64,000 nucleotides of DNA from Gammaproteobacteria bacterium CG11_big_fil_rev_8_21_14_0_20_46_22 (GCA_002796245.1 PCWT01000048.1:71858-135857); one strand, 5' to 3'. Positions 646 to 63,618 are shown, counted from the first letter of the stretch. Program-made: numbers and translations. Notes: generated from the letters alone by a model not told the origin.

Positions 646-657
646 GTCTTTCTTTTT

Positions 658-1192: not shown

Positions 1193-1204
1193 TTCGCGCT
1201 AATA

Positions 1205-2367
<1,163 letters not shown>

Positions 2368-2378
2368 GGTTTTATTGA

Positions 2379-2696
<318 letters not shown>

Positions 2697-2724
2697 GCGA
2701 GACGCTTAACAAAGAGAGAGATCT

Positions 2725-5275: not shown

Positions 5276-5282
5276 ATAATCT

Positions 5283-6149
5283 ATGTCATCGGCTAAAGAG
5301 TTACGCACAAAAATCGGTTCTGTGAAAAACACACAGAAGATTACGCGCGCCATGGAGATGGTCGCCGCAAGCAAGATGCGTAAAGCTCAAGATCGCATGA
5401 AACGTTCGAAGCCTTATGCTTTGAAAATTCGTGATGTGGCTCACCATGTTGCTTTGGCCTGCACCGAATACAAGCATTCGTTTTTAGAGCGTCGTGAAAT
5501 TAAACGAGTCGGTTTTATAGTGGTATCCACCGATCGCGGTTTGTGTGGCCCTTTGAATACGAACTTGTTCAAAGCCGCTGTGAAGCACATGCGTGATTTT
5601 CAGCAGAAAAAAGTCGATATCGATTTGTGCTTAATCGGTAACAAGGCCGATGCCTTCTTCCGCCATTTAGGCGCGAATATTGTCGCCAAAGCGAGCCACC
5701 TGGGCGACGCACCAAAAATTGAAGATTTAATCGGTATCGTGAAAGTGATGCTTGATGCGTATCGCGATGAGAAAATTGATGCGCTCTACCTTTGCTATAA
5801 CGACTTTATCAACACGATGCAACAGCGCCCAGAGGTGTTGGAGCTTTTGCCGATTACGCCCAGTGAAGATAAAGGTACCGAGAAAGGCCATTGGGATTAT
5901 ATTTACGAGCCCGGTGCGCGCGAGCTATTGGATCGTTTGTTACGACGATACATCGAATCTCAAGTGTACCAAGGTGTGGTGGAAAACTTCGCCTGCCAAC
6001 AAGCCGCCACCATGGTTGCGATGAAAAATGCGACAGACAATGCGGGCAAAATTATTAATGATTTACAACTAGCGTATAACAAAGCGCGCCAAGCCGCGAT
6101 CACCAGCGAAATTGCTGAGATTGTGTCCGGCGCTGATGCAGTATCTTAA
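5283..6149 (+). CDS. atpG: F0F1 ATP synthase subunit gamma.
   Basis: [18 protein letters not shown]-terminus and ITSEI...VSGA C-terminus. Confidence 0.95.
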
Positions 6150-6156
6150 GAGGTGA

Positions 6157-7548
<1,392 letters not shown>

Positions 7549-7557
7549 GGGTTGATA

Positions 7558-8001
7558 ATGGCGGCAAAAACGTTTCACTTGGACATCGTCAGCGCAGAAG
7601 AGAAGATTTTCTCAGGTCTGGTTGAGCACATTACGGTTGACGGCGAGGAAGGCGGTTTGGGTATTTTTCCGGGCCACACGCCGTTATTAACTGGGATTAA
7701 ACCAGGTGAAGTCAGCGCCGTGCTTGAGGGCGGCAAACGCGAAGTCTTTTTTATCTCAGGCGGTATGCTTGAAGTTCAGCCTGAAATCGTTACTGTGCTG
7801 GCTGATACCGTTATCCGCGCCGATGACATTGACGAAGAGGAAGCGCAAGAAGCCGTTGAACGTGCAAAGGCGCAGTACGACGAAATCGATAAGAAAGACA
7901 AGGCCGATTACAGCAAAGCCTTAATCGAGCTTCAAGAGGCCTCGGCCCGTTTGCGTGTTGTACGTGATTTGAGTAAATACACCAAACGCCATCTCGGTTA
8001 A
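7558..8001 (+). CDS. atpC: F0F1 ATP synthase subunit epsilon. The listed ORF starts at a TTG at 7552; the ATG at 7558 is the likelier start.
   Basis: Operon position and epsilon-like sequence ([14 protein letters not shown]...). Confidence 0.9.
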
Positions 8002-8054
8002 CTCCGTATTTAAAAGACACCCTTAGACTTGGATGACACACTGATCCATTTATG

Positions 8055-8074
8055 CCATGATCAAATGATCATGG
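8055..8074. promoter_or_regulatory. Perfect 9-bp inverted repeat (CCATGATCA-aa-TGATCATGG) with GATC cores, 13 nt upstream of the MFS transporter start.
   Basis: Read directly from the sequence. It sits between atpC and the MFS gene, overlapping the likely -10/RBS region. Confidence 0.3.
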
Positions 8075-8086
8075 AGACTATATAAA

Positions 8087-9433
8087 ATGGATTTAAGCAC
8101 CGAAAATAATCTACTCGCAAGGCTCGATCGCTTGCCTATTTGGCCCTATTCTCGCGGCGTCTTGCTCACTATAGGCCTCGGCTTTTTTTTCGCCTTCTTT
8201 GATATCATCACGATTGGTCTGGCCATTCCGGTTTTGGTCCAGCAGTTCCATGTTAGTTTGTCGCTGGTTTTGTGGTGTATCAGCAGCAGCTTGATCGGTT
8301 ACATTGTTGGCTCTTTGTTTGACAGTGTTTTGTCGGATTTTTTCGGTCGACGTCTGGCTTTGATTTTATCCATGTTGTTTTTCAGTGTGGGCTCAATATT
8401 GTCAGCCTTTAGCCCGAATATATATTTTTTAATCGCCATGCGTTTTATTATTGGCATGGGCATTGGTTCAGAAATTGCGAATGTGACGACCTACTTGGGC
8501 GAGCTATCGCCAGCCAGCATTCGAGGCAAAATGACCAGTGTGGCTGTGGCACTGGGCTTTTTAGGTTTTGCCGTGGTGCCTTTTGTTGGTCTTGCTTTAA
8601 TTCCTCATTACGTTTGGGGCTGGCGTGTGGTGTTTGCACTGGGTGGCTTGGGCGCACTGGTCGTCATGTTTTGTCGACGGTTTGTTCCACAATCGATACG
8701 CTGGTTGGTTTCGCATAGCAAGCTTGAACAAGCACGTGTGGAGCTTGAGGCGCTGGAGGCAAGAGTTGTATCACGGATAAAAAAAGCATTGCCGCCGATT
8801 GCAGCGTCAGAAGGCTTTGCGCCCTCTTCGTATAAAGATTTATTCAAACCGGCGCAGTTTAAAACGATACTGTTTTTTAGCGCGATTTGGTTTTTTTACT
8901 ATATCGGTAATTATGCTTGGCTAACCTTGGATACCAAGCTTTTTTTGCTGGGTGGTTTTGACCTGCACAATAGTTTGCTATTGGTGTCGGTATCTTCCCT
9001 CGGCTTTATTTTGGGCTCACTGTTTGCGATCTTTTTCAGTGATTGTTTCGAGCGAAAATACACGATTTTTGTTTCGGCTATCGTATGGGCTCTTTGTTTG
9101 CTCGCGATTGCTTGGTGGCCGAGCTTGTGGCTGATTATGGTTTTGGGTTGTTTGGCTGCGATCACTATTTCAATACTTATCCCACTGCTCTACACCCTAA
9201 CCGGCGAGAGCTTTCCAACGGCATGCCGCGCCACAGGTATTTCAGTAACCGATGGTGTAGGTCATTTGGGGGGCGCGTTTTGCGGGCAAATTATTTTTGC
9301 GGTGTATGATTATACGAAAGCCTCTGGGCACGGCGTGAGCTTTGCGTTTACGGCGATGGCTATCACAGGCTTAATCACGGCGATTATGGTGCTGTTTGGT
9401 TTGCGCATGACACGGCAAAGCTTGCAGCAGTAA
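8087..9433 (+). CDS. MFS transporter (12 TM).
   Basis: 448-aa polytopic protein with MFS-like loop motifs (GRRLALI, R-rich loops). Confidence 0.8.
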   Translation: MDLSTENNLLARLDRLPIWPYSRGVLLTIGLGFFFAFFDIITIGLAIPVLVQQFHVSLSLVLWCISSSLIGYIVGSLFDSVLSDFFGRRLALILSMLFFSVGSILSAFSPNIYFLIAMRFIIGMGIGSEIANVTTYLGELSPASIRGKMTSVAVALGFLGFAVVPFVGLALIPHYVWGWRVVFALGGLGALVVMFCRRFVPQSIRWLVSHSKLEQARVELEALEARVVSRIKKALPPIAASEGFAPSSYKDLFKPAQFKTILFFSAIWFFYYIGNYAWLTLDTKLFLLGGFDLHNSLLLVSVSSLGFILGSLFAIFFSDCFERKYTIFVSAIVWALCLLAIAWWPSLWLIMVLGCLAAITISILIPLLYTLTGESFPTACRATGISVTDGVGHLGGAFCGQIIFAVYDYTKASGHGVSFAFTAMAITGLITAIMVLFGLRMTRQSLQQ

Positions 9434-9439
9434 ACGGGC

Positions 9440-10579
9440 TTAAATTAATTTTTCAAGCGAGCGGAGAGCCATTTCAACAGGTAGAGCGCGAATATTGTCG
9501 ATGACTTTTTCTTGAGTGCCCTGGTAGACTAAAAAGCATTCTGCTTCAGGATAGTCGGCATGAAAGGCTTTTAGCCCCTTTAAGTCGTTGTTATCGAAAC
9601 GATCGCGGTGCTTAATTTCAAAAGCCTTAAAGCCGTTCTCGCCATATAGAACAATGTCGACCTCTTGGCCCGTGTGGGCTCGCCAGTAATAGAAATCATA
9701 TTGTTTATCAGAATAAGCATTGATCGCTCTAAGCTCTTGCAAAAATAAGCCTTCTAAAGCGGGGCCACTGATTTCAGATTCGCTATCCAAAGGTCCGCGA
9801 GGGCGGATTTGTTGATAAATTCCTGCGTCGAAAAAATAAAACTTAGGGTGTTTTGCAAGTTTACGTTTTGCTCTACGTGTAAAAGCAGGCAGGCGATAGG
9901 CAATGAGCAAATCTTCTAATATGTTGAAGTAGTTTGAAACCACCTTTTGATCCATGCCTATTTCACGAGCAATAGAAGATAGGTTTAGCTGCTCTCCGTG
10001 AGAAAAGCTTGCGATTTCTAAAAAACGATGAAACGATTGTATATTTCGTGTTAAGCCCTCTTGTAAAACTTCTTCTCGTAGATAGTTGTCCACATAACTT
10101 GCCAAAAATTTATTGGGCTCTTTTGTTGAAATCACTTTAGGTAATTGCCCATACCGTAAGCTGTGAGATAAGTTAAAGTCATCCTCGAGCTCAATAGCGG
10201 TTAAGGGGTGCATGCTTAGACCAAATGCTCGGCCCGCCAAAAGATTAACGCCCTTTTTTCTTAGGCTTCTTGCGCTAGATCCGGTCAGTATAAAGCGTCG
10301 CTTATGGTGTTCGATTTGGCGGTGAACCTCATCTAATAGTGCGGGAATTTTTTGAACCTCATCGATAATGATCCAGTTATTTTTTTTGTGATCGATATAG
10401 GTGGATAAGCGAGAAGGTTGAGACGATAGTTCTAGATAGACGGCTTGATCCAGTAAATCGATATAGATAGCGTCTTGAAAGTGCGCTCTTAGCCAGGTGG
10501 TTTTGCCCGTTCCTCGTGGGCCGAAAAGGAAGTAACTATTCTCGGCATGGTAATCGATGTGCAGAAGGCGTTTGTACAT
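9440..10579 (-). CDS. AAA+ ATPase of the AAA_14/DUF4143 ('archaeal-ATPase-like') family.
   Basis: Walker A GPRGTGKT and Walker B IIDEVQ, with a DUF4143-type C-terminal half. Confidence 0.8.
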   Translation of the reverse strand: MYKRLLHIDYHAENSYFLFGPRGTGKTTWLRAHFQDAIYIDLLDQAVYLELSSQPSRLSTYIDHKKNNWIIIDEVQKIPALLDEVHRQIEHHKRRFILTGSSARSLRKKGVNLLAGRAFGLSMHPLTAIELEDDFNLSHSLRYGQLPKVISTKEPNKFLASYVDNYLREEVLQEGLTRNIQSFHRFLEIASFSHGEQLNLSSIAREIGMDQKVVSNYFNILEDLLIAYRLPAFTRRAKRKLAKHPKFYFFDAGIYQQIRPRGPLDSESEISGPALEGLFLQELRAINAYSDKQYDFYYWRAHTGQEVDIVLYGENGFKAFEIKHRDRFDNNDLKGLKAFHADYPEAECFLVYQGTQEKVIDNIRALPVEMALRSLEKLI

Positions 10580-49126: not shown

Positions 49127-50482
49127 TTGCCTCTGTGCTTTTGTGGCAAACGCCCTAAGCTCAACCAATCCACTGTTTTGGCCGCGGTGACGCTAACAAC
49201 ACGCTACACGGATGAAACATTTTATGAGGATATTTTTCGTGTTGAGCCGGGATGTGCGGTCTATTTAACGCGAAAAGGCGAGCTGAGGAAGACGCGGTAT
49301 TGGGCGTTAGACCCCGAGGTTCATGACTTAAAAATTTCTAGTGATAAATCTTGTTTAAGTCGATTTTCTGATTTGCTAGAAGAGTCTTTGCTTTATTACA
49401 CGAACGGTGTCGAAGACGGCCTGGCTGGTGAGTTGAGCGGTGGTTTGGATTCTTCAACGATACTAACTGCCGCGAAAGCGCTCGGTTTAAATTACCCTTT
49501 ATTTATGCATGTTGCGCCAGAGCCAGAAAACAACACAACAGGTCAATAAGATGATAGTGATTTGGCAAGGCTTCTCTTAAAGCAGCTTGGTATAAATGCT
49601 ATTTCATTTGTTGGTTCACGGGGTTTTGATCTAATAAAAGAGCTGCGTTACTGTTCAGAGGTCTTTGCCGGGTTACCTGCATTTTTGTTACCCATGTTTA
49701 CCCAAAATACCAATCATGCAGTTTTACAAGCGGGTAAGCGCATTGTGCTATCAGGCACTGGTGGGGATGAGTGTGTTTCCTCGCGTGCTCCAGCGACTTG
49801 TTCTCATGCGAGTACTTTTCGGCAGCAAGGTCTAGCTGTTGTTTGGCGACAATTTTTTCACGAGCACAGAAACTGTCTTTTATCATTAAGTACATTAAAA
49901 AAGGCAGAAAAGTTGTTCAAAGCGATGCATCCGGCGATCTTCTTTGTCTTGACTCGGGTTGAAACGGCTAGTTCGCCGATAAAAAGCTTGCTAAAAGAAA
50001 ACGTTCGTCACACACCGATTTTTTACAAAAAAGGTTATTATAAAAGCGTCCGTGCTTATGAGTGGGATCATCTACAGGGCTCTAGAAGTGATACATTGCG
50101 TTGGCGTATCGAGTATCACGCCATGTTGGGCGACCACCAGGGGCTGGAGTACCGTTATCCTTTGCTTTACCCTAAGCTTGTCGAGTTCTGTTTTCATCTG
50201 CCTGAGAAATTTAAGCGACGAGATAGAGTTGGGCGCTATCTCGTGCGTGAATACTTAAAGGCTCGGGGTGTACCCCAGCCTGTTTATTCAAAGACTCAAA
50301 AAACGGGCGCCAGTATTCCTGCCACGATTGAAACGGCTTTTCAGTACTTGCGTGATCCTATCGTTAGGCAAGGGTTAAAAGACCTACCTTGGTTCAAAAA
50401 AGCCCGACGAAAAACAGCTCACGAGGAGCTGATCGCTTGGGTCTATTGCTACATGCTTAATCACTACCCAAAAAAGCATTAA
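49127..50482 (+). pseudogene. Disrupted paralog of the AsnB-family PP-loop synthetase at 52492. It lacks the first ~85 aa and has an in-frame TAA at 49547-49549 where the intact copy has GTG (Val).
   Basis: The two ORFs 49127..49549 and 49562..50482 are in the same frame. They align colinearly with the 52492 protein (SGGLDSS, YPLLYPKLVEFCFHLP... ~75% identity in that stretch). Confidence 0.7.
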
Positions 50483-51814: not shown

Positions 51815-52300
51815 ATGAAGTCCTTTCTGTTTTCAAAAAAATCTGCGTTGATTTCAATTGCCTTGCTGGGAAACGCTGCTTATGGTGTCACGGTAAATAA
51901 TTTATTTTCTCCTTCGGCAGAGAATAGCGTGGGCTGTACTGTTATTATTGGGAACAGTCCGTCGGGGTCCAAAACGGTGACATCAACTCGGGTTACCCCA
52001 TATAGTGACGCAAACTGTGTTACTGCAATATCTGGGGGGCAGAGAAATGTGGGGGCAACTCCCGCTGCGACATTTTCTTCTGGTACAACTAGGCGCTGTA
52101 ATGCAGCATCGTTATACGCCATTTTGGCAATTGCTGGTGGTACTCCAACAAATGCGCGCTCCGTTTTTATTGAGCCACTGGATGGGGTCAATCCAATTTG
52201 GGGCGGTACTGGAGGAGCTTGCTTTAACGTTAGCTGTACTTTAGGCTCTCCTAATCAGTGCACATCAGCAGACGTGGGTAACGTTGCTAATGCATCTTGA
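51815..52300 (+). CDS. Secreted Gly/Ser/Thr-rich protein with 6 Cys (161 aa). The start is taken at MKSFLF.
   Basis: RBS AAGGAG, and a signal peptide MKSFLFSKKSALISIALLGNAAYG. No recognisable family. Confidence 0.55.
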   Translation: MKSFLFSKKSALISIALLGNAAYGVTVNNLFSPSAENSVGCTVIIGNSPSGSKTVTSTRVTPYSDANCVTAISGGQRNVGATPAATFSSGTTRRCNAASLYAILAIAGGTPTNARSVFIEPLDGVNPIWGGTGGACFNVSCTLGSPNQCTSADVGNVANAS

Positions 52301-52491
52301 TTTGTTTGTTGTGCAATTTCTTAGAGATTTAAGCCGTGAAAAAAACCCCTACTTACACTAACCTGATCGATTTTTCTTTAGAAAGAAAAGACTGTTGGGT
52401 AAGGCCGCATCTTCTTGTTGTATCGGTTTCAAATGTTACTCAGGGCGGTGACGGCGGTGGTGACGAAGTCAATGGTATGTGGAGCTAGTCT

Positions 52492-54057
52492 TTGTTGACG
52501 GCTCTACACATTATTTGCGCTAGCGAAAGCTTGGAATCGTACAAAGGAATGCTTACTCCTGCGGGTTTTGATAAAAACCACCTTCGAGCACTATCCAACC
52601 CTTCATTAGTCCTCGCCCGAAGCGAATTTGGCCAGGAGCCGTTATATTATTACTACGATCAAAAAACGCTAATCTACGGTCACACCATCCCTGACATTAT
52701 TCAAAAGCTAGAAACCCATCCTGTTTTAGATCACGATGAAGTGCTTAAGCTTATGGCTCAGCGGCGCACATACACTGACAAAACGATTTACCAACACATA
52801 TACAGCGTTGAGCCGGGCACCATTGTGTATCTCACAGCACAAGGCGAGCTGAAAAAACATCGCTACTGGCAGCTGGACCCCAATGCAGATGATCTTGTGC
52901 TGAAAAGTGATCAAGCGTATTTCAATCGCTTTGACGAGTTGATGCAAGAGTCGCTGCATCACAACACGCAGGGCTGTGAGCACGATATTGCCGGCGAGCT
53001 CAGCGGTGGACTGGATTCATCCAGTATTTTAACGGCGGCTCAGTCGCTGGGCTTGCACTATCCTTTGTTTATGCATGTCGCGCCAGAAAATCCTCGTTTT
53101 GACCAAGTGGATGATAGCCACTTGGCCAAGCAAGTGCTTTCGTATTTTGGTTTGAGCGATGTGTCGTTTGTGGATGCGAAAAACTTTGATTTCTTTGCAG
53201 AGCTTGAGTTCGCAGCCCGGGTGTTTGCAGGGCCGGCATCCTGTATTTTACCGGTAATGGCGCAGAACGTTGGGCGCGCCGTGGCGCAGTCTGGCAAGCG
53301 GATTTTATTATCGGGCGCTGGTGGTGATGAGTGTGTGTCTTCTCACGCGCCGGAGTCAGCTTACCTTGCCGGCCAATTTCGTGAGCGGGGCGCGCGTGCC
53401 GTTTGGCAAGCATTTTTTAAAGAACAGGCCAGCAGCTTATTGTCGTTCACGACGTTAAAAAAAGCCGAACAATTATTCAAGGCGATGCACCCTGCGATCT
53501 TTCATGTGCTGAGTCGATCAGAAAGTACCGCCAAGCTCAGCTACATGCTGTGTCGTCAGGGTTTTAAAGGGTTGCCACCTAAAACAACGTTCTCTAAAAA
53601 GCGTTATTACACAAGCATTCGTGCGTTTGAATGGGATCGGCTTCAAGGTTCAACCAGTTGTTTTTTGCGCGGTCGCATTGAGCACCATGGCATTTTGGCC
53701 AATGCCACAGGCTTTGAATACCGCTACCCTTTACTTTACCCGAAACTTGTGGAGTTTTGTTTTCACTTGCCGGCACGATTTAAGCGCCGAGATGGCGTGG
53801 CGCGCTATATGGTGCGTGAGTACTTAAAGGCCCACGGTCTGCCTGAAGACGTGTATTCAAAGCAGCAAAAAGTGGGCGGCATTGCACCAGGTACCTTGGA
53901 AAATGTCTTTGAGCTTATGCAAGACTCAGGCTTTCTGGCGCGTTTTGAGAATTTGCCCTGGGCGGATAAAGTGGTTAAAACGACATCCCACAACAAACTT
54001 ATCGGCTATATTCCGGCCTATATGCTCCATTATTATCAGACCGTGTTACAGCGTTAG
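52492..54057 (+). CDS. Asparagine-synthetase-B-family PP-loop ATP-pyrophosphatase lacking the N-terminal glutaminase Cys. It resembles lasso-peptide cyclases, beta-lactam synthetase and CarA.
   Basis: ELSGGLDSS PP-loop. No MCG nucleophile. ~520 aa. The listed start is a TTG; an ATG alternative is at 52546. Confidence 0.8.
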   Translation: MLTALHIICASESLESYKGMLTPAGFDKNHLRALSNPSLVLARSEFGQEPLYYYYDQKTLIYGHTIPDIIQKLETHPVLDHDEVLKLMAQRRTYTDKTIYQHIYSVEPGTIVYLTAQGELKKHRYWQLDPNADDLVLKSDQAYFNRFDELMQESLHHNTQGCEHDIAGELSGGLDSSSILTAAQSLGLHYPLFMHVAPENPRFDQVDDSHLAKQVLSYFGLSDVSFVDAKNFDFFAELEFAARVFAGPASCILPVMAQNVGRAVAQSGKRILLSGAGGDECVSSHAPESAYLAGQFRERGARAVWQAFFKEQASSLLSFTTLKKAEQLFKAMHPAIFHVLSRSESTAKLSYMLCRQGFKGLPPKTTFSKKRYYTSIRAFEWDRLQGSTSCFLRGRIEHHGILANATGFEYRYPLLYPKLVEFCFHLPARFKRRDGVARYMVREYLKAHGLPEDVYSKQQKVGGIAPGTLENVFELMQDSGFLARFENLPWADKVVKTTSHNKLIGYIPAYMLHYYQTVLQR

Positions 54058-54820: not shown

Positions 54821-55224
54821 GGGGGCGTCATTGGTTTCGACGTGATTTACAAGACCCAAAGTGCATGCCGAGTGTGTAAGCTACTCGCTAAACAAGCTGC
54901 AATCGTTATAATTGCAAACGATACTACTTTTGCTGCTGAGGACGCTATCGCTGCCTAACCGGCAGAGGAGAAATCCTCTCTCGTCGTACTAAACCTACGA
55001 CACAGCCCAGCGACCGCGTGAGCCCGCGCGTGTGGAAGCTGGTAATTTAGCGGGATCGCGACGTGGAGTGTCTAGCAACATCGTCGTTAAATGTAACCGC
55101 TAGGCTTGCCTTGTGTGATCCTGTCGGTCGGAGCGCATAAGGTGACACAAAAGACCGCTCTAAGCATGTAGACCTTTGTGTTGCGATTTTGCGGACGCGG
55201 GTTCAACTCCCGCCGCCTCCACCA
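54821..55224 (+). ncRNA. ssrA: tmRNA (SsrA).
   Basis: 5' end GGGGGCGUCAUUGGUUUCGACG. Tag reading frame GCA AAC GAT ... GCT GCC TAA (ANDTTFAAEDAIAA). tRNA-like 3' end GGGUUCAACUCCCGCCGCCUCCACCA. Confidence 0.85.
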
Positions 55225-55301
55225 ACGCAACCGCTTGATTTATTTGGACTTTCTTATCAACTCAAAAGGCCGCGGGAAATTGGCGGGAAACAACTGAAAA
55301 C

Positions 55302-56462
55302 TTACCACTGATTAACAGGCCGATAACCTCCAAAAATATTTTGATCCGGAATCCACCGCGTATAGTACCGTGCTGTTGTCAACATTGTTTCATGCCCCAT
55401 CTGCCCAGAAACCCATGGAAAATACTCGCCACCCGATACCATCATCGACGCAAATGTATGACGTGTTTGATATAAATTACGATATTCAATATTGGTTATC
55501 TTGAATAATGGCAGCCATGCCTGTTTCCGCATTTCGCTCGCATCTTTCCATGGTCGCTTTTTTTGAGGGTTGAAAAATATATAGGATTGCTGCCAGAGCG
55601 TATACTGCTTTTGTGCTTTTAAAGCACTTAAAGCAGGACGTAAAAGCTGTACGGTTCTCCTGCTCCTCTTCGTTTTAGTAGGCCTTACTTTACCTTGAAC
55701 AACAATACGTCTGATGTAAATAAAACCATTTTCTAAATCAACGTCCTCCCAGCGCAAACCAACCAATTCTGCGGTACGCAAGCCAGTATAGAAAGCAAAT
55801 TGAAATAGATTTTTAATTTGCCCTTCTGCAGTCGCTAACAACTTATAAATTTCAGCTTGTGTAAACGGATTAACTTCATAAGTTGATTTAATTCTCGTTA
55901 AAAGTTTAAGATCAATAAGCGTAAAAGGATTAACCGTAAGATAGCCTCGGATCATAGCCTCTGCAACAACGTACCTCAGTGGCGTCAATATATTAAGGAT
56001 AGTTTTTCGCTGACACTTAAATTTATTCAACCAATCCCAAATAATACCTGCGCTGAGTTCAGTTACAGGTAACTTTCCAAAAGCCAGTCTTAAATGTTTA
56101 TTACATGTCCTTTGATAGCGATCATAAGTATTGTCGCTTACACGTTGTTTTATCCTTTCTAAATACAAATCTATTAACTCATTGACAAGCGTTGCCTTTG
56201 GCACATGTCCAAACCTAATTGCATTTTTTGAATAAGGAAAAAAATCAGTATAATTAAAGTCGCCAAAAGCAATCGCTTTTAAAAGCTCTTTTCTCAAGCG
56301 AATGGCTTTTTTGATATTTCTTGTATTAACTGTAAAATTCAGTTTTTCACGGCAGTACTTATATCGATAACGAAATGTTATCCGTAAACTCTTTTTTCCT
56401 GTTTTGGAAATTCTAACGTAAACACCCGTTGCAACTCGAGTTTCAGTTTCTTTCACACCCAT
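55302..56462 (-). CDS. int: Tyrosine recombinase (P4-type integrase).
   Basis: C-terminal catalytic region with R...HxxR...Y (TRHTFAS...ARYYTRW). Confidence 0.9.
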   Translation of the reverse strand: MGVKETETRVATGVYVRISKTGKKSLRITFRYRYKYCREKLNFTVNTRNIKKAIRLRKELLKAIAFGDFNYTDFFPYSKNAIRFGHVPKATLVNELIDLYLERIKQRVSDNTYDRYQRTCNKHLRLAFGKLPVTELSAGIIWDWLNKFKCQRKTILNILTPLRYVVAEAMIRGYLTVNPFTLIDLKLLTRIKSTYEVNPFTQAEIYKLLATAEGQIKNLFQFAFYTGLRTAELVGLRWEDVDLENGFIYIRRIVVQGKVRPTKTKRSRRTVQLLRPALSALKAQKQYTLWQQSYIFFNPQKKRPWKDASEMRKQAWLPLFKITNIEYRNLYQTRHTFASMMVSGGEYFPWVSGQMGHETMLTTARYYTRWIPDQNIFGGYRPVNQW

Positions 56463-56527
56463 GCTTTTATCTCCTATATAAATTAAGCTTTAATAACATA
56501 ACCTAAATTTAATCAAGGAGTACAAAA

Positions 56528-56740
56528 ATGTTAGAAACAGATAAAAAACCAACAAGATTATTGAGGCTCAAAGAAGTAAAACATCGCACAGGGCTGTCAC
56601 GCTCATCTATATACCTTATGATATCAGAAAATCAGTTCCCCCGACAAATTCAATTAAGTGGCAACCGCAGTGTTGCATGGGTTGAGCAAGAGATTGAAGA
56701 GTGGATACAAATGAGAATTAAGCTTAGCAACCACACATAA
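56528..56740 (+). CDS. alpA: AlpA-family transcriptional regulator/excisionase.
   Basis: LLRLKEVKHRTGLSRSSIYLMISENQFP HTH typical of AlpA. Confidence 0.8.
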   Translation: MLETDKKPTRLLRLKEVKHRTGLSRSSIYLMISENQFPRQIQLSGNRSVAWVEQEIEEWIQMRIKLSNHT

Positions 56741-56792
56741 ACCTAATGCTTGTCATAAATGTTGCCTAACTCATTATAAATAAAAGTGGCTA

Positions 56793-58607
56793 TTACTTAT
56801 CTAACAAATGGTTTGGTATTAATATACAAGGGTCGCCCGTTGGTGTAAGGATAGTGCAACGAGCCATTGCCCGCGTCACGCTAACCCTCAGCATGTATTT
56901 GTAATGAACCAAGTCCTGGCTATTTGTATTTCCTCTGACAATGCGATCAGGGTTTCCAATTAATTTTCCTTCCTTTTTCTGTGGCCATCCTTCAAAAATA
57001 ATCACCTCATCAAACTGTTTCCCTTTCGATTTATGCATATTCATGATCACCACACCATATTCAGACCTTGATGATACAGAAAAATGCTCCTTCTGAAAAA
57101 ATCGCCTAAAAGAATCCAAGGCATTAGTATAAGCTCCTCTGTCTCTCCAAGCTTGCGATAAAATATTTCTTAGTTGCACACCTCGTCTCAATAACTTTAA
57201 GTTCTTTACCTCTTCAATGATTTGTTTCAATCTTTTGCAGCCAGACTTTTCTAAAGCAGACGAAATATGTTGCCAATCAACCTTTGGAGTACCTGTTAGT
57301 GATATACCACGTGCTGAGTCATATCCTTCAAGCATTGGCTTAAGTATACTATTTTTTGCAAATTTTTTTTCCTGAATGAATTTGTCGTAAGCTTTTTTTA
57401 TGTTAGTCGATTCGCTAATATCTTTCTTAGTAGGCGAATCACTGCCTTTTCCCTGAAAAAAATTGCACACTAATTCAATGAACAGTGATTGATCGTCATC
57501 TGCTTTTTTAGGCTGAAAAAAGAATGCAAATATCTCAGCCGCTAACAAAGTAGCATTCATGTCTATAGAGGCAGTATGCGGAATAATAGGCAGCTTATTT
57601 TGCTTGCTACCAAAATAATTAGATACATCCCGCATCATTTTTTTTGTGGGTACTAGGACAGCAACTGACCAGTCATGATTAGAGCTTGATTTTAATCTTT
57701 TTACTGATTGTAAGGCTTGACCTTTTAGGGCAGCAAAAGCTTGGTTTTTATTTGGCTCAAAAGTCTTGCAACATACCCCAACATAGTTGTCTCGAAAATT
57801 TTTACCTTTTAATATGTCGTTACCAAATAATAATATATCAGTGCCGTGACTACGATGATTTTCATCTTGCAGATTAAATTCACTTGGGTTAAATTCCTTT
57901 ATAAAATGAGTTAGCCTTTCCGGATCCGCGCCAATAAAATCATAAATCCTCTGCTCTGGGTCAGCCAAAGCGATTAATTCACTATTTTGACCAAGCAGAT
58001 TAACAACATCCCATTGTGCAGCACTGGTATCTTGAAACTCATCAAGAATGATATAAGGATATGTATCCGAAATTAATTTTTTAATCTTTTCGCTGCCAAG
58101 CAAAATATCATGAACATAATTGGCAAATAAATCAAAACACACACGCCCTTCATTTTTGGCTATCTGATGTCTCTTGGCACTTTCTTCCTTATTTTTATTA
58201 TTAATATCTGTCTCAGTTAGCTGGGAAATAGAACCATATTGATGTCTTATTGAAGATAGAGCAACGGCCTCAGCAGGTGGATTCAATACTGATAGTTTTC
58301 TTGGCAATCCCAATAAATAACCATGTGATTTCATAATTTTCCAAAAAAATGAATGATAAGTATCGATTTTGATATTCTTACAATCATGCAAGTTATTTTT
58401 AGCATGTTTTTCTAAGGTTTCGACAATTCGTGCTACACTTTGCCTCGCAAAGCTTAGAAACAATATCTTCCGCCCATCACTAAGTTCATTTGCTATGTTA
58501 ATTGCCTTCAAGATTGAAATAGTTGTTTTGCCTGCTCCTGGTCCGCCAATGATTAATAGGTGCCCTGTTGCTTGCAAAATTTCACGCTGCTTGTTAGACA
58601 GATTCAA
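56793..58607 (-). CDS. gajB: UvrD/Rep-family helicase, GajB-like partner of the OLD-family ATPase.
   Basis: GGPGAGKT Walker A and TYHSFF motif Ia. It overlaps the upstream GajA-like gene by 14 nt. Confidence 0.8.
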   Translation of the reverse strand: MNLSNKQREILQATGHLLIIGGPGAGKTTISILKAINIANELSDGRKILFLSFARQSVARIVETLEKHAKNNLHDCKNIKIDTYHSFFWKIMKSHGYLLGLPRKLSVLNPPAEAVALSSIRHQYGSISQLTETDINNKNKEESAKRHQIAKNEGRVCFDLFANYVHDILLGSEKIKKLISDTYPYIILDEFQDTSAAQWDVVNLLGQNSELIALADPEQRIYDFIGADPERLTHFIKEFNPSEFNLQDENHRSHGTDILLFGNDILKGKNFRDNYVGVCCKTFEPNKNQAFAALKGQALQSVKRLKSSSNHDWSVAVLVPTKKMMRDVSNYFGSKQNKLPIIPHTASIDMNATLLAAEIFAFFFQPKKADDDQSLFIELVCNFFQGKGSDSPTKKDISESTNIKKAYDKFIQEKKFAKNSILKPMLEGYDSARGISLTGTPKVDWQHISSALEKSGCKRLKQIIEEVKNLKLLRRGVQLRNILSQAWRDRGAYTNALDSFRRFFQKEHFSVSSRSEYGVVIMNMHKSKGKQFDEVIIFEGWPQKKEGKLIGNPDRIVRGNTNSQDLVHYKYMLRVSVTRAMARCTILTPTGDPCILIPNHLLDK

Positions 58608-60345
58608 TAGGCACCTCTTTCTGTGCCAGGTCTACATTATTTTCGCCATTACATAGTAATTTAATTTCTTTGCAAGTATTCTTTATCCAGTCAGGTATTT
58701 CATTTTCCGCACATTGCGCTAAAAAACTTGCTATAGCACCGTCCCCCTTGTACTTTATAAAGTAAGCCTTTAGCGCATCGGCTGAGTTTTCTTTTGGATT
58801 TTCATATTTTTGTTTTAAATCTTGCGGCCATTCTAAACTATCGATAAATCTAGTAATTGCATCTTGCGCTGTATTATTCAAAACAAGATCCTCAAAGCCT
58901 TTCTCGTCATGCATAAATAACTGATCAACTGCTTTTTCTATATTTCCTTTATTCTCATCCATTTGTTTATCACATAAACCAAATACTTGCTTATCAAGGT
59001 TTTTGTACACATTAGCTAAAGCTACTAATTGTGAATCAGTTCCAGCATCAATCACGCAAAGGCCTAGCATTTCAAAATTTGCATAATCATTTGAATTTAG
59101 CTCAACTAAACGTCTTGCAACAACTGGCATAGCAGCAGCTTCTGTCGCTCCTTCAACAATTAATACCCGTCTTGACAATAACCCTTCGCAAAACCTCGTA
59201 CGAAATTCTTGTCTATATCTTTTAGGCTTAATGCTATCTGGCAACTCAACTTTTGCCTGATTAAGTACGCCATTGGAATTTCGGGATAAAATAACTGTTT
59301 CATCTAAATTAAATTCTTCTATTACGTAAGGTGAGTGAGAGGTAAAAAATGTTTGGGATGATAGTAGCCGTATTTCATGCACGATACGTTTTTGGGTATA
59401 TGGGGGAATTGCCGTTTCTGGTTCTTCCATAGCAAAAATAACATTTTGTTTCGCCTCAGCAATCATGGAAAGCATAGCAAGCACTAGCATGTTAATTGTT
59501 CCTGTGCCTTGACGATAAAATGGCAGATAATGATCGCCATTGCCAGTGGTAACAAAGGCTGTAATGATTTTTCTTAAATGCTCTCTCGTGAGATTAGAAA
59601 TTTTCAAATGAGGCGAAGCACCCCATTCTTTAGGAACAAATTTTTTAATGCTACTTTCTATATTTTTAAGAATTCCTACAACACCAAGCTCTGATTCAGA
59701 TGCCACGTCACGTGTGCTTAATTCTTCAATCGTTTTTTCCCACATTTGTGGTCGTACTTCTTTTATACGAAGAATAATATCTAATAAGCTACCATGCTCT
59801 AAACTTAATGCGCGAGATCCCGTTCTTATTGAGCGAAGATATAGAAAGCCACATTTTTGCTTGTCTTTTTTCTTAAAAGGTTGAGACGTATCATTATCAA
59901 CCAAGCTTCTCGTAAAGTAAGTAGCACCAGTAAAATCGTCTTCATCAGCATCATAATAACCTTTAAAACAGACGCGTAAGGCTGCCAATGTTGAATCCCT
60001 ATCAACGCTATTTAGTTCAGAAATTAATTCTTTTTTGTCTTTGTTCCACCACTCGATAGTATCAGAAAAATGGCGCTGTTGTTCTTCATTTAAATCGACA
60101 ACAACTGCTTCAATAGATATCTCTACAAGCTGATCATCTGATCTGTACATCCCATTATAAAAATCATGTTCATCGATGATGGGACGTCTATTAAGTCTAT
60201 CTGGGCCTAAAACCAAATCAAGTGCTTCAAAAATAGTTGATTTACCAGTATTATTATCACCAAGCAGTACCGCGTGATCTGGAAAGAATAAATTCGCTGA
60301 ATGTATTCCCCTAAAATTTTTAATCTCAAGCTTTGCCACTTTCAT
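58594..60345 (-). CDS. gajA: OLD-family ATPase–Toprim nuclease, GajA-like (class 2 OLD).
   Basis: N-terminal ABC ATPase (LLGDNNTGKST) and a C-terminal Toprim (VLIVEGATE ... VIDAGTD). Confidence 0.8.
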   Translation of the reverse strand: MKVAKLEIKNFRGIHSANLFFPDHAVLLGDNNTGKSTIFEALDLVLGPDRLNRRPIIDEHDFYNGMYRSDDQLVEISIEAVVVDLNEEQQRHFSDTIEWWNKDKKELISELNSVDRDSTLAALRVCFKGYYDADEDDFTGATYFTRSLVDNDTSQPFKKKDKQKCGFLYLRSIRTGSRALSLEHGSLLDIILRIKEVRPQMWEKTIEELSTRDVASESELGVVGILKNIESSIKKFVPKEWGASPHLKISNLTREHLRKIITAFVTTGNGDHYLPFYRQGTGTINMLVLAMLSMIAEAKQNVIFAMEEPETAIPPYTQKRIVHEIRLLSSQTFFTSHSPYVIEEFNLDETVILSRNSNGVLNQAKVELPDSIKPKRYRQEFRTRFCEGLLSRRVLIVEGATEAAAMPVVARRLVELNSNDYANFEMLGLCVIDAGTDSQLVALANVYKNLDKQVFGLCDKQMDENKGNIEKAVDQLFMHDEKGFEDLVLNNTAQDAITRFIDSLEWPQDLKQKYENPKENSADALKAYFIKYKGDGAIASFLAQCAENEIPDWIKNTCKEIKLLCNGENNVDLAQKEVPIESV

Positions 60346-60848
60346 TTCTATTTCCCTAAATACCGTTGCTCACTTACCTTAATAACAATTTTAAGCTTCG
60401 GCTCTAAAAGTTCTTTTTGCCCGACCAGTTAGGCGTTTGTTTGGAAGGCTTAAAGGAGAGCTTAATATACCATTAAAAAACATATATCATACCAGCATCG
60501 CAATCTTGTCCCAAGTCACACCATAAGCCTAACATAAGGCCATGCTCGATAATATTTTAGCTAGAAAATCACTAGTGAGCCTTGAAATACCCAAAAGCTA
60601 ACTATTTCAAGTCTCAAAACGCCTAAATCTGTGCACCAAGCAGTAACTAGGTATAACAAAAGACAACAAACCATTTCTCTTTAACTTTAATTGATTTTCA
60701 TTTTTTAGTTATTGAAAAGACCGCAGGAAATCAATGAAGGAAGATATTTTTTCCGATGATTCACTGGCAGGCAGTTACAATAAAGGTAAACCTGTTATTA
60801 ACTAGCTACTATAAAAACGGTTTGCGCCAATGCAAATAAACCAAAGAT

Positions 60849-60873
60849 ACTTATAGTCTGTAGACATAAAGTC
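60849..60873 (+). promoter_or_regulatory. C-box operator for the controller protein: ACTTATAGTC-tgta-GACATAAAGTC, the C.PvuII-type GACTnnnAGTC tandem.
   Basis: Read directly. It is 25 nt upstream of the C gene ATG. Confidence 0.55.
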
Positions 60874-60897
60874 ATCTTTTCGATACTAATAAGCAAC

Positions 60898-61149
60898 ATG
60901 AAGCATCAAATTTTACAGAATCATCCTGACAAGTTGCAAAAAATATTTGCTCAAAATGTTCGTATTGAACGAATAAAAATGAATATGACACAAGAAGAGC
61001 TTGCTGATATATGTGGCTATCATCGAACATATATTGGCTCCATAGAAAGAGGAGAGAGAAACGTTACTCTAGCAGCTATTGAGGCACTAGCTAAAGCATT
61101 TAAGGTCAAGCCATATCAGCTATTGGTAAGAGATAATGAACAAAATTAG
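60898..61149 (+). CDS. R-M controller (C) protein, XRE-family HTH.
   Basis: 83-aa HTH protein (MTQEELADICGYHRTYIGSIERGERN) overlapping the downstream REase gene. Confidence 0.8.
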   Translation: MKHQILQNHPDKLQKIFAQNVRIERIKMNMTQEELADICGYHRTYIGSIERGERNVTLAAIEALAKAFKVKPYQLLVRDNEQN

Positions 61150-61876
61150 CAAGCCAGATAACATGTCTCAAGAATTTTACGAGGCTTGTATAGCAGTTGA
61201 AGGCAAACGTGCACGCACCGTCATTAACCACATTCTTCAGAATGGCTTTATAACAACTGAAGAATTAAGTGATATCTATGCCTATGATCATCCGCCAAGA
61301 GCCGCTAGAGATGTAAGAGAAAATGGAATCCCGCTAAAAACCTACAAGGTAGTAAGCAAAAAAACAGGGCGGAAGATTGCAGCCTATAAATTTGATTTTA
61401 GTGAAAAAACTAAAGGCAGAATTGGAGGCAGAAAAGCATTCTCTATACAATTTAAAAAAAAGCTAATTGAGAGATATGGATCATGCTCAGTTCTAACTAA
61501 CGAAAAGATTAACCCTCGATACTTACAAATAGATCATCGTATCCCCTATGAAGTGGCGGGCAACGACGCAAACGAAGATGTTGAGCATTATATGCTACTA
61601 GATGCTTCTGAACAACGCGCAAAAAGTTGGTCTTGTGAATCATGCGAAAACTTCCGCACAAACAAAGATAAAAATATCTGTGAAAATTGTTTTTGGGCAT
61701 ATCCGGAAAACTATTCTCATATTGCAATGAAACCAGAACGTCGTTTAGATATCTTGTGGTCTGGAGATAACTGCAAGCAATACGAACTACTAGTCACAGA
61801 AGCAAAAAAAGAAAACCAATCTCCACAATCACTTATTAAAAAATTACTAAAAGACAGTTTTTCTGACAGTAATTAG
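61136..61876 (+). CDS. Type II restriction endonuclease, HNH family, with Zn-ribbon cysteines.
   Basis: YLQIDHRIPYEVAGN HNH core and CESCENF...CENCFW motifs. It lies between the C gene and a convergent MTase. Confidence 0.7.
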   Translation: MNKISKPDNMSQEFYEACIAVEGKRARTVINHILQNGFITTEELSDIYAYDHPPRAARDVRENGIPLKTYKVVSKKTGRKIAAYKFDFSEKTKGRIGGRKAFSIQFKKKLIERYGSCSVLTNEKINPRYLQIDHRIPYEVAGNDANEDVEHYMLLDASEQRAKSWSCESCENFRTNKDKNICENCFWAYPENYSHIAMKPERRLDILWSGDNCKQYELLVTEAKKENQSPQSLIKKLLKDSFSDSN

Positions 61877-61899
61877 AAAAGCCAGCGATTTTTTCTTTT

Positions 61900-62778
61900 T
61901 TATATTACCCCTCCTTTTTGACACCAACTATCCGCATAATGTAATAACTGGCGCGAAATATAAAGGCTTTCAATTGTCTCTTCAGATCGACCCGAAAGTG
62001 TTGCCTGGGAAGAGCGGCCTGCTGCAATCCAAAGACGCTTCATTTTCAAATATTCAGGGAGCTCATCTGCATACTCCACATTACCCGTTTTACCGTCATA
62101 TGAAAGTATGAAAGGAACGTCCCTATTATTGATAAATTCTAACCCTTCTATCAGCGCATCTCTTCCAAGCTGCATAAAATAACGCTTATCACGACCATAC
62201 GTAGTTCCGTGATATGGAGGATCCATGTAAACTAAATCACCTAGTTTGGCGTCCTTAATACTATCTCGGAAATCGCCACAACGCACAATTACCCTTCCTT
62301 TGAGAAGTTGACTAACTTCATTGATTGATTTTTTCATCCTTTCTGGCCGCGTACCTAAACGTCTCTTATCCGCAGATTGCGTAAAATCACCATTCCTATT
62401 AAAGCGTACTGCATTTTTTACACATCTTGCCACTAGGTAGAGAAGATCCACTGGATCTTTCTCTGCATTAAAGCGCTCACGAATTTTCAGAAAATAATCA
62501 GGGCTCTCTGCATAACCCTTCCATATTTCTTCGTAACGCCTACCAGTTTTCTCTGGATGATTAATAATCTCTTCCCAAAGTTTGGCCAGAGGCTCAAGAG
62601 AGTCAGCTATTACATATTGTTTGGCTAAATTATTAGAGGCCGCATAAATAGTTACTGCCGCAGATCCAGCAAACGGTTCATAGAAAGTATTAACACTTTT
62701 TGGCATAAGAGTGCAAATACGCTTAGCAAGATTTCTCTTGCTTCCTTGATAAGGAATAACATGAGGAACATTTTTCAT
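61900..62778 (-). CDS. N6-adenine DNA methyltransferase, Dam-like (alpha group, D12 class).
   Basis: Motif X PYQGSKR, motif I FYEPFAGSAAV, motif IV DPPY. Confidence 0.9.
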   Translation of the reverse strand: MKNVPHVIPYQGSKRNLAKRICTLMPKSVNTFYEPFAGSAAVTIYAASNNLAKQYVIADSLEPLAKLWEEIINHPEKTGRRYEEIWKGYAESPDYFLKIRERFNAEKDPVDLLYLVARCVKNAVRFNRNGDFTQSADKRRLGTRPERMKKSINEVSQLLKGRVIVRCGDFRDSIKDAKLGDLVYMDPPYHGTTYGRDKRYFMQLGRDALIEGLEFINNRDVPFILSYDGKTGNVEYADELPEYLKMKRLWIAAGRSSQATLSGRSEETIESLYISRQLLHYADSWCQKGGVI

Positions 62779-63061
62779 TTATACTACAATTACACGCATT
62801 AAATTGATACTTAAAGTCATCATATAAGAAAATCTTACCCTATGCAAGAGTCAGGAAAACATCCCCACATCCGCCTATTATTTTTGCACAATATAATCCG
62901 TGAATCCGGGGGATCACCAGGGGATCATCTGCCGACAATCAGTGACAATGAAATACAATTCGACAATTTAGCAACTTTGTTAACTCTTTGATAGAAGCTG
63001 TATTTCATTGTATTTGATTGTCTTTGGCAGCATTAAATTGACTACGTTTTGACCGGCTGCG

Positions 63062-63081
63062 TTTTCGACTCCCGCCGCCGC
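63062..63081. repeat. Putative attR: imperfect direct repeat of the ssrA 3' end (GTTTTCGACTCCCGCCGCCG vs GGTTCAACTCCCGCCGCCTCC).
   Basis: 15/17 identity over the core, read directly. Confidence 0.5.
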
Positions 63082-63181
63082 GGTTTTTTTATTTAATGAT
63101 GCTTGGGCTTGCCTAACCACCAATGGGCGTTTATCCTAGTCAGCACATACAAGGATAGATAGCATAACTGAGCACAATCCA

Positions 63182-63310
63182 ATGCATGATGATTTTAAAA
63201 AAAGTGCCTGGCATAGCCCAAGCTTAATGATCTTGTCGCTGCCTGTTGTAACAGCGGGTGGTGGTGAGGGCGCAGAGGGTGATGCTGGCGGAAGCTTTTG
63301 GAGAAGCTAA
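63182..63310 (+). CDS. Candidate lasso-peptide precursor (42 aa): MHDDFKKSAWHSPSLMILSLPVVTA|GGGEGAEGDAGGSFWRS.
   Basis: Thr at leader position -2. The core starts with Gly and has Glu7/Asp9 available for a 7-9-membered ring, with an F/W/R tail. It is immediately upstream of the PqqD-like RRE. There is no obvious SD, and the ORF was too short for the ORF track. Confidence 0.45.
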   Translation: MHDDFKKSAWHSPSLMILSLPVVTAGGGEGAEGDAGGSFWRS

Positions 63311-63333: not shown

Positions 63334-63618
63334 ATGAAAAGCTTCTCAAACAATACAGTACTGAGCCGAAACACGACATTAATGGCCGCAAACGTTGACG
63401 ACGATCTTGTAATGATGGATGCAGACCAAGGCGTTTATTTTAGTTTAAACCCCGTGGGCGCAGCCATTTGGGCTCTACTTGAAACCCCAAAAACCTATGA
63501 TGATTTGATCTCAGGTCTGTTGTCTCAATACGAAGTCACTCGCGAAACGTGCGAGCAGGATGTTCAGCCCTTTTTGAGCGAGCTTGTTGATAATGGGCTT
63601 GTGATGCTTGGCGGTTGA
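63334..63618 (+). CDS. PqqD-family RiPP recognition element (lasso B1-like). The start is taken at MKSFSNN.
   Basis: DDDLVMMDADQGVYFSLNPVGAAIWALLETPKTYDDLISGLLSQYEV...DVQPFLSELVDNGLVM matches the PqqD/RRE fold pattern. No other PQQ genes are present. Confidence 0.75.
   Translation: MKSFSNNTVLSRNTTLMAANVDDDLVMMDADQGVYFSLNPVGAAIWALLETPKTYDDLISGLLSQYEVTRETCEQDVQPFLSELVDNGLVMLGG

Follow-up and report, generated by a model that had tools for sequence, protein, structure and literature searches.

A probable integrative island at the tmRNA gene of a metagenome-derived gammaproteobacterium, with predicted Gabija and C-controlled restriction–modification modules

Introduction

Genomic islands that integrate into tDNAs (genes for transfer RNA, tRNA, and transfer-messenger RNA, tmRNA) restore the gene that they split, and a displaced 3' fragment of that gene marks the far end of the insertion (PMC4383910). 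A tyrosine integrase beside the tDNA, together with such a fragment, is the anatomy on which the Islander concept is built. At ssrA, the tmRNA gene, of E. coli, the CP4-57 island carries an AlpA-family regulator (Pfam family PF05930 is named after the AlpA of CP4-57), and in Dehalococcoides islands are stacked in tandem at ssrA (PMC3146451). Here we describe a segment of 7,855 bp (7.86 kb) adjoining ssrA in a 64,000-nucleotide stretch of DNA (the window) from the metagenome-assembled genome (MAG) of an uncultivated groundwater bacterium, Gammaproteobacteria bacterium CG11_big_fil_rev_8_21_14_0_20_46_22 (GCA_002796245.1, PCWT01000048.1:71858-135857). This segment is very probably an integrative genomic island, inserted in the single tmRNA gene of the MAG and carrying a Gabija module and a type II restriction–modification (R-M) system.

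Gabija is defined as a class 2 OLD protein adjoining a UvrD-like helicase (PMC10568477). Type II R-M systems governed by a controller (C) protein use an operator, the C-box, which in the PvuII group has the consensus GACT-N3-AGTC-N4-GACT-N3-AGTC with a TGTA spacer (PMC2175313); in Esp1396I (PMC2691842) the CR operon is convergent with the M gene. The island described below has much in common with these systems and is, as an earlier note made from the sequence of this DNA had said, a composite of known systems, here Gabija and C-controlled R-M at a tmRNA gene; it is no new kind of system. With other tDNA islands it shares the neighbouring tyrosine integrase and the displaced 3' fragment, with CP4-57 the AlpA-family gene and, through its relatives, with the Dehalococcoides islands the tandem stacking. 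It differs from known tDNA islands in having an integrase of the DUF3596/Arm-DNA-bind_2 type rather than the P4/IntA type, in its minimal content (int, alpA and two defence modules) and in the truncation of its displaced fragment.

An AT-rich segment between two copies of the tmRNA 3' end

Three features define the borders of the island:

54821..55224, + strand: ssrA, the integration target, full length (ARAGORN; Rfam RF00023, 184.9 bits)
55192..55217, + strand: attL, copy of the repeat covering the T-arm and the start of the acceptor 3' strand (repeat search; exact core ACTCCCGCCGCC at 55206-55217)
63054..63079, + strand: attR, displaced and degenerate tmRNA 3'-end copy (CGGCTGCGTTTTCGACTCCCGCCGCC) followed by GCGGTTTTTTT in place of TCCACCA (repeat search)

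ARAGORN and Rfam agree on the tmRNA gene, which spans model positions 1-374 of 374 and is not truncated, in keeping with the tmRNA target that the earlier note had placed at the start of the island. The two repeat copies match at 21 of 26 positions, including the exact 12-mer core, and this pair is the sole long-range direct repeat in which the tmRNA takes part. An att duplication, whose absence was named beforehand as refuting an island, is present, and the claim of an imperfect terminal repeat of the tmRNA 3' end stands in this form, although the right-hand copy is incomplete and stops before TCCACCA. No third copy of the tmRNA 3' end was found in the 6.3 kb past the window, up to and beyond smpB.

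The composition of the DNA changes at the same places. The island has a GC content of 36.9%, against 46.3% for bases 1-54820 (the left 54.8 kb), which puts numbers on an AT-richness previously judged by eye. Directly past the tmRNA gene the profile falls from 0.45-0.52 to 0.33-0.41, recovering at ~63000, with steps at 55250 and 63000; the drop coincides exactly with the segment between the repeats.

Could this be a native AT-rich stretch downstream of ssrA, with a terminal 'repeat' that is a chance match? The repeat is short and imperfect, and its extensions are not significant either leftward over ~30 nt (p=0.34) or to the right (p=0.15), where the DNA beyond attR was considered, and rejected, as the remnant P' arm of an older island. 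However, a 19-mer of the tmRNA 3' end, allowed up to three mismatches, is expected only 0.01 times per window and is seen exactly twice, at attL and attR. The repeat falls exactly at the GC step, the integrase gene abuts the tmRNA gene (its stop codon is 78 nt from the tmRNA 3' end), the arm motifs that flank both repeat copies are conserved in three other elements and the cargo modules are found on plasmids of unrelated bacteria. The 19-mer statistics and the conserved arms in relatives effectively refute the chance-match explanation, to which we attach next to no weight.

On the island reading, the anatomy of the locus suggests that the attP of a circular element held a copy of the last ~16-24 nt of ssrA, and that the DUF3596/Arm-DNA-bind_2 integrase recombined attP with the ssrA 3' end. 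The island-borne copy would now complete a functional tmRNA at attL, the 3' end of ssrA from ~55206 onward being the stretch regenerated in this way, whilst the other copy would have been displaced 7,862 bp downstream to become attR.

Two observations concern the tmRNA itself and its partner. For the tag region (54887-54958) ARAGORN reports a 23-aa tag, AKQAAIVIIANDTTFAAEDAIAA; the Rfam alignment places the resume codon at the GCA of ...UAAUUGCAAACGAU, giving a conventional 14-aa tag, ANDTTFAAEDAIAA (compare ANDNIFAANDEVKAAA in L014, a related element described below). Between attR and smpB, which follows it at a distance of only ~3 kb, are genes for a DUF2971 protein and an alpha/beta hydrolase.

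Integrase, AlpA and candidate arm sites

The recombination genes and their candidate sites are as follows:

55302..56462, - strand: tyrosine integrase of the DUF3596/Arm-DNA-bind_2 type, 386 aa, reading towards ssrA (Pfam PF12167, PF14659 and PF00589)
56528..56740, + strand: AlpA/Vis-type excisionase and regulator, 70 aa, divergent from int (PF05930, 81 bits; cutoff 21)
55272..55290, + strand: candidate P' arm-type integrase sites, two copies of GCGGGAAA with 11-bp spacing, in the gap separating the tmRNA gene from the int stop codon
62908..62993, + strand: candidate P arm of the former attP, with a motif order shared with L014 (alignment) and L016, upstream of the att copies

The integrase consists of Arm-DNA-bind_2 (PF12167, formerly DUF3596), Phage_int_SAM_3 (PF14659) and Phage_integrase (PF00589) domains, and its catalytic residues R229, K263, R334, H357 and Y367 are all present and invariant in an alignment of 18 family members. 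It had previously been labelled P4-type. That label is wrong, since P4 Int (from NC_001609) is built from Arm-DNA-bind_3 (PF13356), Phage_int_M (PF22022) and PF00589, and the two proteins share only 21% identity (BLASTP, E=0.01). The nearest phage integrases, those of Ralstonia phages, E. coli PhiR12 and Cronobacter phiES15, are ~40% identical. The AlpA gene, by contrast with the integrase label, was correctly called: besides matching PF05930 its product is 47% identical to P4 ORF88 (E=2e-18), annotated 'excisionase and transcriptional regulator', and it is predicted to act as the recombination directionality factor that would drive excision.

The similarity to P4 Vis/ORF88 raises the question of whether the element might be a P4-like phage satellite or a phage-inducible chromosomal island, dependent on a helper and carrying int, a Vis-type regulator and defence genes in a variable hotspot. 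Small size and defence cargo are also features of P4-like satellites. Besides the different integrase, however, there is no primase/alpha, psu/sid/delta, cos-like or capsid-related gene, all island open reading frames (ORFs) of at least 100 aa being accounted for; no DNA match was found in 50,697 phage records, and no relative of the integrase above 28% identity was found in IMG/VR. We consider a satellite origin very unlikely.

Sequences resembling integrase arm sites lie at both ends of the island. In alignments with related elements the P' arm, between the core and the int stop codon, takes the form (G/C)CGGGAAA-N3-GCGGGAAA (55272-55290 in the window); the motif GCGGGAAANTGGCGGGA recurs in the corresponding position in L014 and L018, and as a variant in L016. 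The P arm comprises two copies of GGGGATCA at 11-bp spacing (62908-62929), three of GACAAT (62934-62967) and TAACTCTTTGATA (62981-62993), and in the alignments also holds TTGT(C/A)T repeats. The complement of TAACTCTTTGATA fits the IHF consensus WATCAANNNNTTR. Judged by their position and conservation, these motifs are candidate binding sites for Int, Xis and IHF. Both GGGGATCA repeats of the candidate P arm contain GATC; if the Dam-family methyltransferase of the island recognises GATC, methylation could affect protein binding at the P arm, though this is pure speculation.

Related elements in other metagenomes

The closest integrases, encoded by three other metagenome-derived sequences, are those of L018 (70% identity), L014 (56%) and L016 (53%). 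L014 (with L015) belongs to MAG RIFCSPHIGHO2_12_FULL_35_23 and contains a tandem array of three tmRNA-3'-end copies at a real tmRNA gene, in the order tmRNA gene, split integrase and AbiEii gene, 3'-end copy with one mismatch, intact integrase with AbiEi/AbiEii, and third copy with three mismatches. The same arm motifs flank an att copy in L016 (11150-11560), suggesting a second tandem array; the L018 contig ends inside the P' arm, before its att site. The P' arm motif accompanies int in all three relatives and the P arm motif order precedes a tmRNA-3'-end copy in L014 and L016; tandem stacking at ssrA is shown for one of the three (L014). The array of L014 is at 500-8134, and beyond the third att copy there is a further P-arm-like remnant (two copies of AGAGGGCTC and three of GACAA), suggestive of repeated insertion and decay.

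The cargo differs from element to element: Gabija and R-M in the island, AbiE in L014, and Schlafen/AlbA_2-HATPase, Fic and AAA_15 genes in L016 and L018. The same gene content at ssrA in all relatives, which the earlier note had named as evidence against mobility, is not what is seen, in that a more distant MAG, the one with the 56%-identical integrase, has AbiE cargo at ssrA. Shared arm motifs, tandem stacking and differing cargo support the view that these sequences form a family of integrative elements. Site specificity for ssrA does not extend to DUF3596 integrases as a whole: in a survey of 80 metagenome loci encoding integrases 35-45% identical to that of the island, 58 had enough flanking sequence, and only 2/58 adjoin tmRNA genes and 5/58 tRNA genes, so that the idea of an entirely ssrA-specific integrase family was rejected.

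The Gabija module

A PADLOC run on the island, as the earlier note had advised, matched its GajA, GajB, Control_protein, REase_II and MTase_II models, and all the genes that the note had named are present. The first two correspond to adjacent genes on the same strand:

56793..58607, - strand: gajB, UvrD/PcrA/Rep-like superfamily 1 (SF1) helicase, 604 aa, TTG start (PADLOC GajB PDLC00104, 707 bits, end to end; Pfam UvrD-helicase)
58594..60345, - strand: gajA, class 2 OLD-family ABC ATPase with Toprim nuclease, 583 aa (PADLOC GajA PDLC00086, 857 bits, residues 1-571; Pfam AAA_15, OLD-like_TOPRIM)

Both components of the Gabija definition are present, and the proposed arrangement of an OLD-ATPase/Toprim gene overlapping a UvrD-like helicase gene proved sound. 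The overlap is 14 nt long and suggests translational coupling. GajA retains the Walker A (GDNNTGKST, with K35), Walker B (AMEEPE) and Toprim (LIVEG, with the glutamate E398) motifs; in GajB helicase motifs I, II, III and VI are present (GGPGAGKTT, DEFQD and VTRA among them) and its matches in the Protein Data Bank (PDB) are UvrD and PcrA. The best PDB match of GajA is the Thermus OLD protein 6P74.

With the Gabija system of Bacillus cereus VD045 the island pair shares the order of an ABC-ATPase and Toprim OLD nuclease followed by a UvrD-like SF1 helicase, the catalytic motifs and end-to-end matches to the PADLOC models. It differs in its subfamily, a proteobacterial one: genes 60-65% identical are found on plasmids of Alphaproteobacteria and Rickettsiales. 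Relatives of GajA in particular, 57-65% identical, are encoded on plasmids of the unrelated bacteria Ca. Megaera, Croceicoccus, Sinorhizobium and Rhizobium, a distribution showing that the Gabija module moves horizontally. In B. cereus, where the system has been characterised, GajA and GajB assemble into a complex, and nucleotides restrain its DNA nicking. By homology, the island pair is predicted to act as an anti-phage module.

The C-controlled restriction–modification cassette

A 552-bp divergent control region separates gajA from the C gene, the first gene of the second module:

60848..60873, + strand: C-box operator TACT-TAT-AGTC-TGTA-GACA-TAA-AGTC, 24 nt upstream of the C-gene ATG (match to the PvuII-group consensus)
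60898..61149, + strand: controller (C) protein, 83 aa, HTH_3 (PADLOC Control_protein PDLC03665, 71 bits; Pfam HTH_3)
61136..61876, + strand: type II restriction endonuclease (REase), 246 aa (237 aa from the second ATG), with a winged helix and an HNH nuclease part predicted from its family (PADLOC REase_II PDLC03566, 154 bits)
61900..62778, - strand: D12-class (Dam-family) N6-adenine DNA methyltransferase (MTase), 292 aa, convergent with the C-R operon (PF02086, 131 bits; PADLOC MTase_II, 225 bits)

The C-box agrees with the PvuII-group form at 14/16 half-box positions and has the identical TGTA spacer, and the convergence of the C-R operon with the M gene is as in Esp1396I. The C gene lies upstream of the REase gene and the two overlap by 14 nt. 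That the MTase is Dam-like and convergent, as first proposed, is borne out by its opposite strand, by PF02086, by assignment to the dam subfamily TIGR00571 (133 bits, cutoff 114.85) and by its FAGSA (FxGxG-like) and DPPY motifs.

The proposed operon of a C protein and an HNH endonuclease holds for the C protein and the C-R overlap, and for the HNH nuclease at the level of the family, but the island REase itself fits no HNH model: taken alone it has no match in Pfam, NCBIfam or the PDB. Its family is large, with 552 cluster representatives in a full HMMER search, and combines an N-terminal winged helix part with the consensus LQxDHRIPxxxxGDx(10)MLLCxSCNRxKSWxCExCPN...CxxCYWAxP. Among 54 relatives, Pfam finds HNH (PF01844) in 23/54, HNH_5 in 9, Endonuclease_7 in 7 and HTH_39 (the N-terminal winged helix) in 15, and the family profile matches the HNH endonuclease 4H9D in the PDB (E=0.0018) as well as Cas9 HNH domains. 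The island protein keeps D133-H134 and K163, and has D156, E159 and Q160. Compared with described C-protein-controlled type II systems, the cassette has an REase from an uncharacterised winged helix-turn-helix (wHTH) plus HNH family with no solved structure, and a D12/Dam-family adenine MTase.

The same cassette, C and R in one direction and M in the other, occurs on a 5.1-kb Aeromonas sp. plasmid, pWP2-W18-CRE-05_9 (NZ_AP021926.1), with all three genes arranged and oriented alike, an REase 61% identical and the C-box core ACTTATAGTCTGTnGACnTAAAG conserved upstream of the C gene. There the cassette is plasmid-borne rather than inserted in a chromosome as an island, and its annotation goes no further than hypothetical protein and DNA adenine methylase. 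A search for palindrome avoidance in the 64-kb window, as a guide to the recognition site, gave no signal for GATC, CATG or others.

Homology with known systems suggests how the cassette would function. The C protein would bind the C-box and switch on its own operon, including the HNH-family endonuclease, only after the convergent, independently transcribed Dam-family MTase had had time to protect the genome.

State of attR and evidence for mobility

Contig PCUS01000081.1 of MAG GCA_002787725.1 matches the window at 100% identity, and 17-18 public contigs (ENA, JGI and Logan assemblies, with Crystal Geyser samples such as SRR5436000, ERZ27293344 and JGI 3300004196 among their sources) are likewise 100% identical and all carry the island; because every one of them has the same sequence and arrangement, only one clone has been sampled.

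Several observations weigh against the interpretation set out so far, or against parts of it. Neither an empty ssrA site nor a circular attP junction occurs in the 17-18 public contigs, all of which are clonal. Only 15/16 nt (TTCgACTCCCGCCGCC) of attR are shared with attL, and TCCACCA is missing; for this reason attR is not the intact displaced host 3' end expected of a recent, clean integration. GajA is only remotely similar to the studied GajA of B. cereus (22.9 bits, E=2.6e-4), so that the B. cereus mechanism is transferred to the island by analogy only. Finally, the REase has Asp, Glu and Gln where most relatives have Cys, Cys and Asn in the HNH motif; since Gln is found at position 160 in 19/54 relatives these substitutions look like normal variation, two relatives also share 'LLDAS', and on the alignment the protein appears to be an ordinary variant of the wHTH-HNH family.

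Searches beyond the clone were made in several ways. The predicted attP junction (GCTGCGTTTTCGACTCCCGCCGCC joined to TCCACCAACGCAACCGC) and close relatives of the integrase were not found in searches that included IMG/VR. The predicted empty site, attB, consists of ...GCGGGTTCAACTCCCGCCGCC followed by the DNA now at 63080 onward; its 26-nt right flank was not present in a metagenome contig collection, one that excludes the JGI contigs holding this flank. The 34-nt tmRNA 3' end matched >120 genomes (Halieaceae and others) in a scan of genome contigs, none of them close and none with island genes, and is therefore too conserved to be clade-specific. The nearest available relative, judged by SmpB (78% identity), shares its gene order with this MAG only as far as smpB; past that gene its neighbourhood is entirely different and has no ssrA, and the whole stretch from smpB to ssrA may be variable.

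How attR came to its present form bears on whether the island can still move. Right of its crossover, attR should carry the former 3' end of the host gene, which, we infer, must have terminated in TCCACCA so as to pair with GGGGGCG at the 5' end. The att copies of L014 keep GTTCAACTCCCGCCGCCTCCACCA, where attR in the window reads TTCgACTCCCGCCGCC and then GCGGTTTTTTT, and a small deletion after integration is the simplest reading of this loss. The mismatches between copies lie in the island-derived left part of the block (in the T-loop, TTCGACT here against TTCAACT; CCCaCC in the third copy of L014), suggesting a crossover in its 3'-most part. If so, the deletion at attR would impair excision. 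An att copy in L016 also ends early, at ...CTCCA, and for this reason we leave excision competence at roughly even odds.

These points can be read more severely: the island arrived as proposed but is now an immobile relic, the attR deletion having taken away the crossover region, and the replication, transfer or phage genes of some larger ancestral element having been lost, with int and alpA persisting only for lack of time. This differs from the interpretation we favour only in the island's present state, and we regard it as a serious possibility that falls somewhat short of an even chance. It would account for the missing TCCACCA, retained in the L014 copies, for the T-loop mismatch, for the want of an empty site or circle in any public contig and for the fact that Pfam and PADLOC find no replication, mobilisation or packaging gene among the island genes. 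Set against this, the int and alpA frames are intact with all catalytic residues conserved, and both arm regions are as well conserved as in the relatives. The 12-nt identical core that remains could contain a 6-8 bp overlap region, the early end of the L016 copy indicates that the required identity may be <24 nt and, in a single-clone sample, absence of polymorphism says little.

Mobility of the island has support of an indirect kind only, from composition, from the att and arm architecture, from the variable cargo of the relatives and from the occurrence of both modules on plasmids elsewhere. Driven by the AlpA/Vis-type factor, excision today may be less efficient for want of the terminal TCCACCA at attR.

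In some assemblies breaks coincide with the ends of the island. Logan contig L006 terminates at position 55188 of the window, inside the tmRNA gene just before the repeat, and contigs L005 and L020 of JGI sample 3300004196 share an overlap of no more than 33 nt (63106-63138) immediately past attR. Such breaks could reflect a minor island-free or excised variant, or just low coverage.

A broader proposal is that the island stands for a clade, so far undescribed, of minimal defence cassettes that are specific to ssrA and live in uncultivated Gammaproteobacteria of groundwater, its members having a DUF3596 integrase and a conserved attP arm layout, and this island in addition a Vis-type factor, a locked attR and a wHTH-HNH endonuclease of new specificity. 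We put this forward tentatively and, taken as a whole, lean against it.

Lasso-like loci on either side of the island

The flanking DNA carries genes reminiscent of lasso peptide biosynthesis. For an AsnB-like gene to the left (52492-54057) the highest-scoring model is that of the lasso cyclase (NF033535; 131 bits, below cutoff), and a 45%-identical homologue adjoins PqqD and Transglut_core3 genes (L013); the AsnB-like protein had no relative in a scan of genome contigs. A 50-aa ORF (52336-52488) immediately precedes the AsnB-like gene and ends ...NVTQGGDGGGDEVNGMWS, with a putative boundary between NVTQ and the C-terminal GGDGGGDEVNGMWS. On the other side of the island, a 42-aa ORF (63182-63310) ending ...PVVTAGGGEGAEGDAGGSFWRS, with a putative boundary between PVVTA and the C-terminal GGGEGAEGDAGGSFWRS, lies directly upstream of a PqqD gene (63382-63618). 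The two precursor-like ORFs share Thr at -2, an acidic, Gly-rich core and a terminal W(R)S, and are paralogous in design. In L012 a 66-aa ORF (9272-9472) ending ...GTNGGTANSPEASGGGWS and a stop codon precedes the 45%-identical cyclase homologue.

Also encoded on the left side are a 161-aa protein with a signal-peptide-like N-terminus (51815-52300), upstream of the first precursor (A1) and the cyclase, which has no Pfam or NCBIfam match but is 30% identical (E=3e-4) to a 156-aa protein in the same position in L012 (9519-9989), and a second AsnB-like/lasso-cyclase paralogue, split between 49127-49549 (140 aa) and 49562-50482 (306 aa). The latter part is 51% identical to the intact protein; the split gene, which adjoins phhA/phhB (phenylalanine hydroxylase and pterin dehydratase), is probably a pseudogene. 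Neither the window nor the 6 kb beyond it yielded a B2 (Transglut_core3) protease, and a 190-aa protein encoded upstream of ssrA was rejected as a diverged B2 protease, having no similarity to a Transglut_core3 protein. The flanks may represent an unusual lasso-like family of ribosomally synthesised and post-translationally modified peptides (RiPPs).

It had been suggested that the insertion separates the AsnB-like locus from a precursor and RiPP recognition element (RRE) pair. The island does lie between them, but so do ssrA and the 190-aa gene: without the island the order would be A1-C-orf190-ssrA-A2-B1, which is not a contiguous operon. With ssrA in between, and a second precursor-like ORF upstream of the AsnB-like gene, the flanks were never one uninterrupted operon.

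Significance

The conceptual change brought by this island is small, tmRNA genes being classic hot spots for integration and islands commonly carrying Gabija and C-controlled R-M systems. In this MAG the island can now be delimited to the nucleotide, and the label of its integrase has been corrected. The flanks, with their lasso-like RiPP system, deserve a look of their own. The analysis also flags an uncharacterised family of wHTH-HNH restriction enzymes, with >500 cluster representatives, together with its C-box. Beyond this MAG, the small group of ssrA elements has a readable attP architecture that could be used to map islands in related MAGs and, if the clade proposed above is real, its elements would stack at the tmRNA gene and swap their defence cargo.

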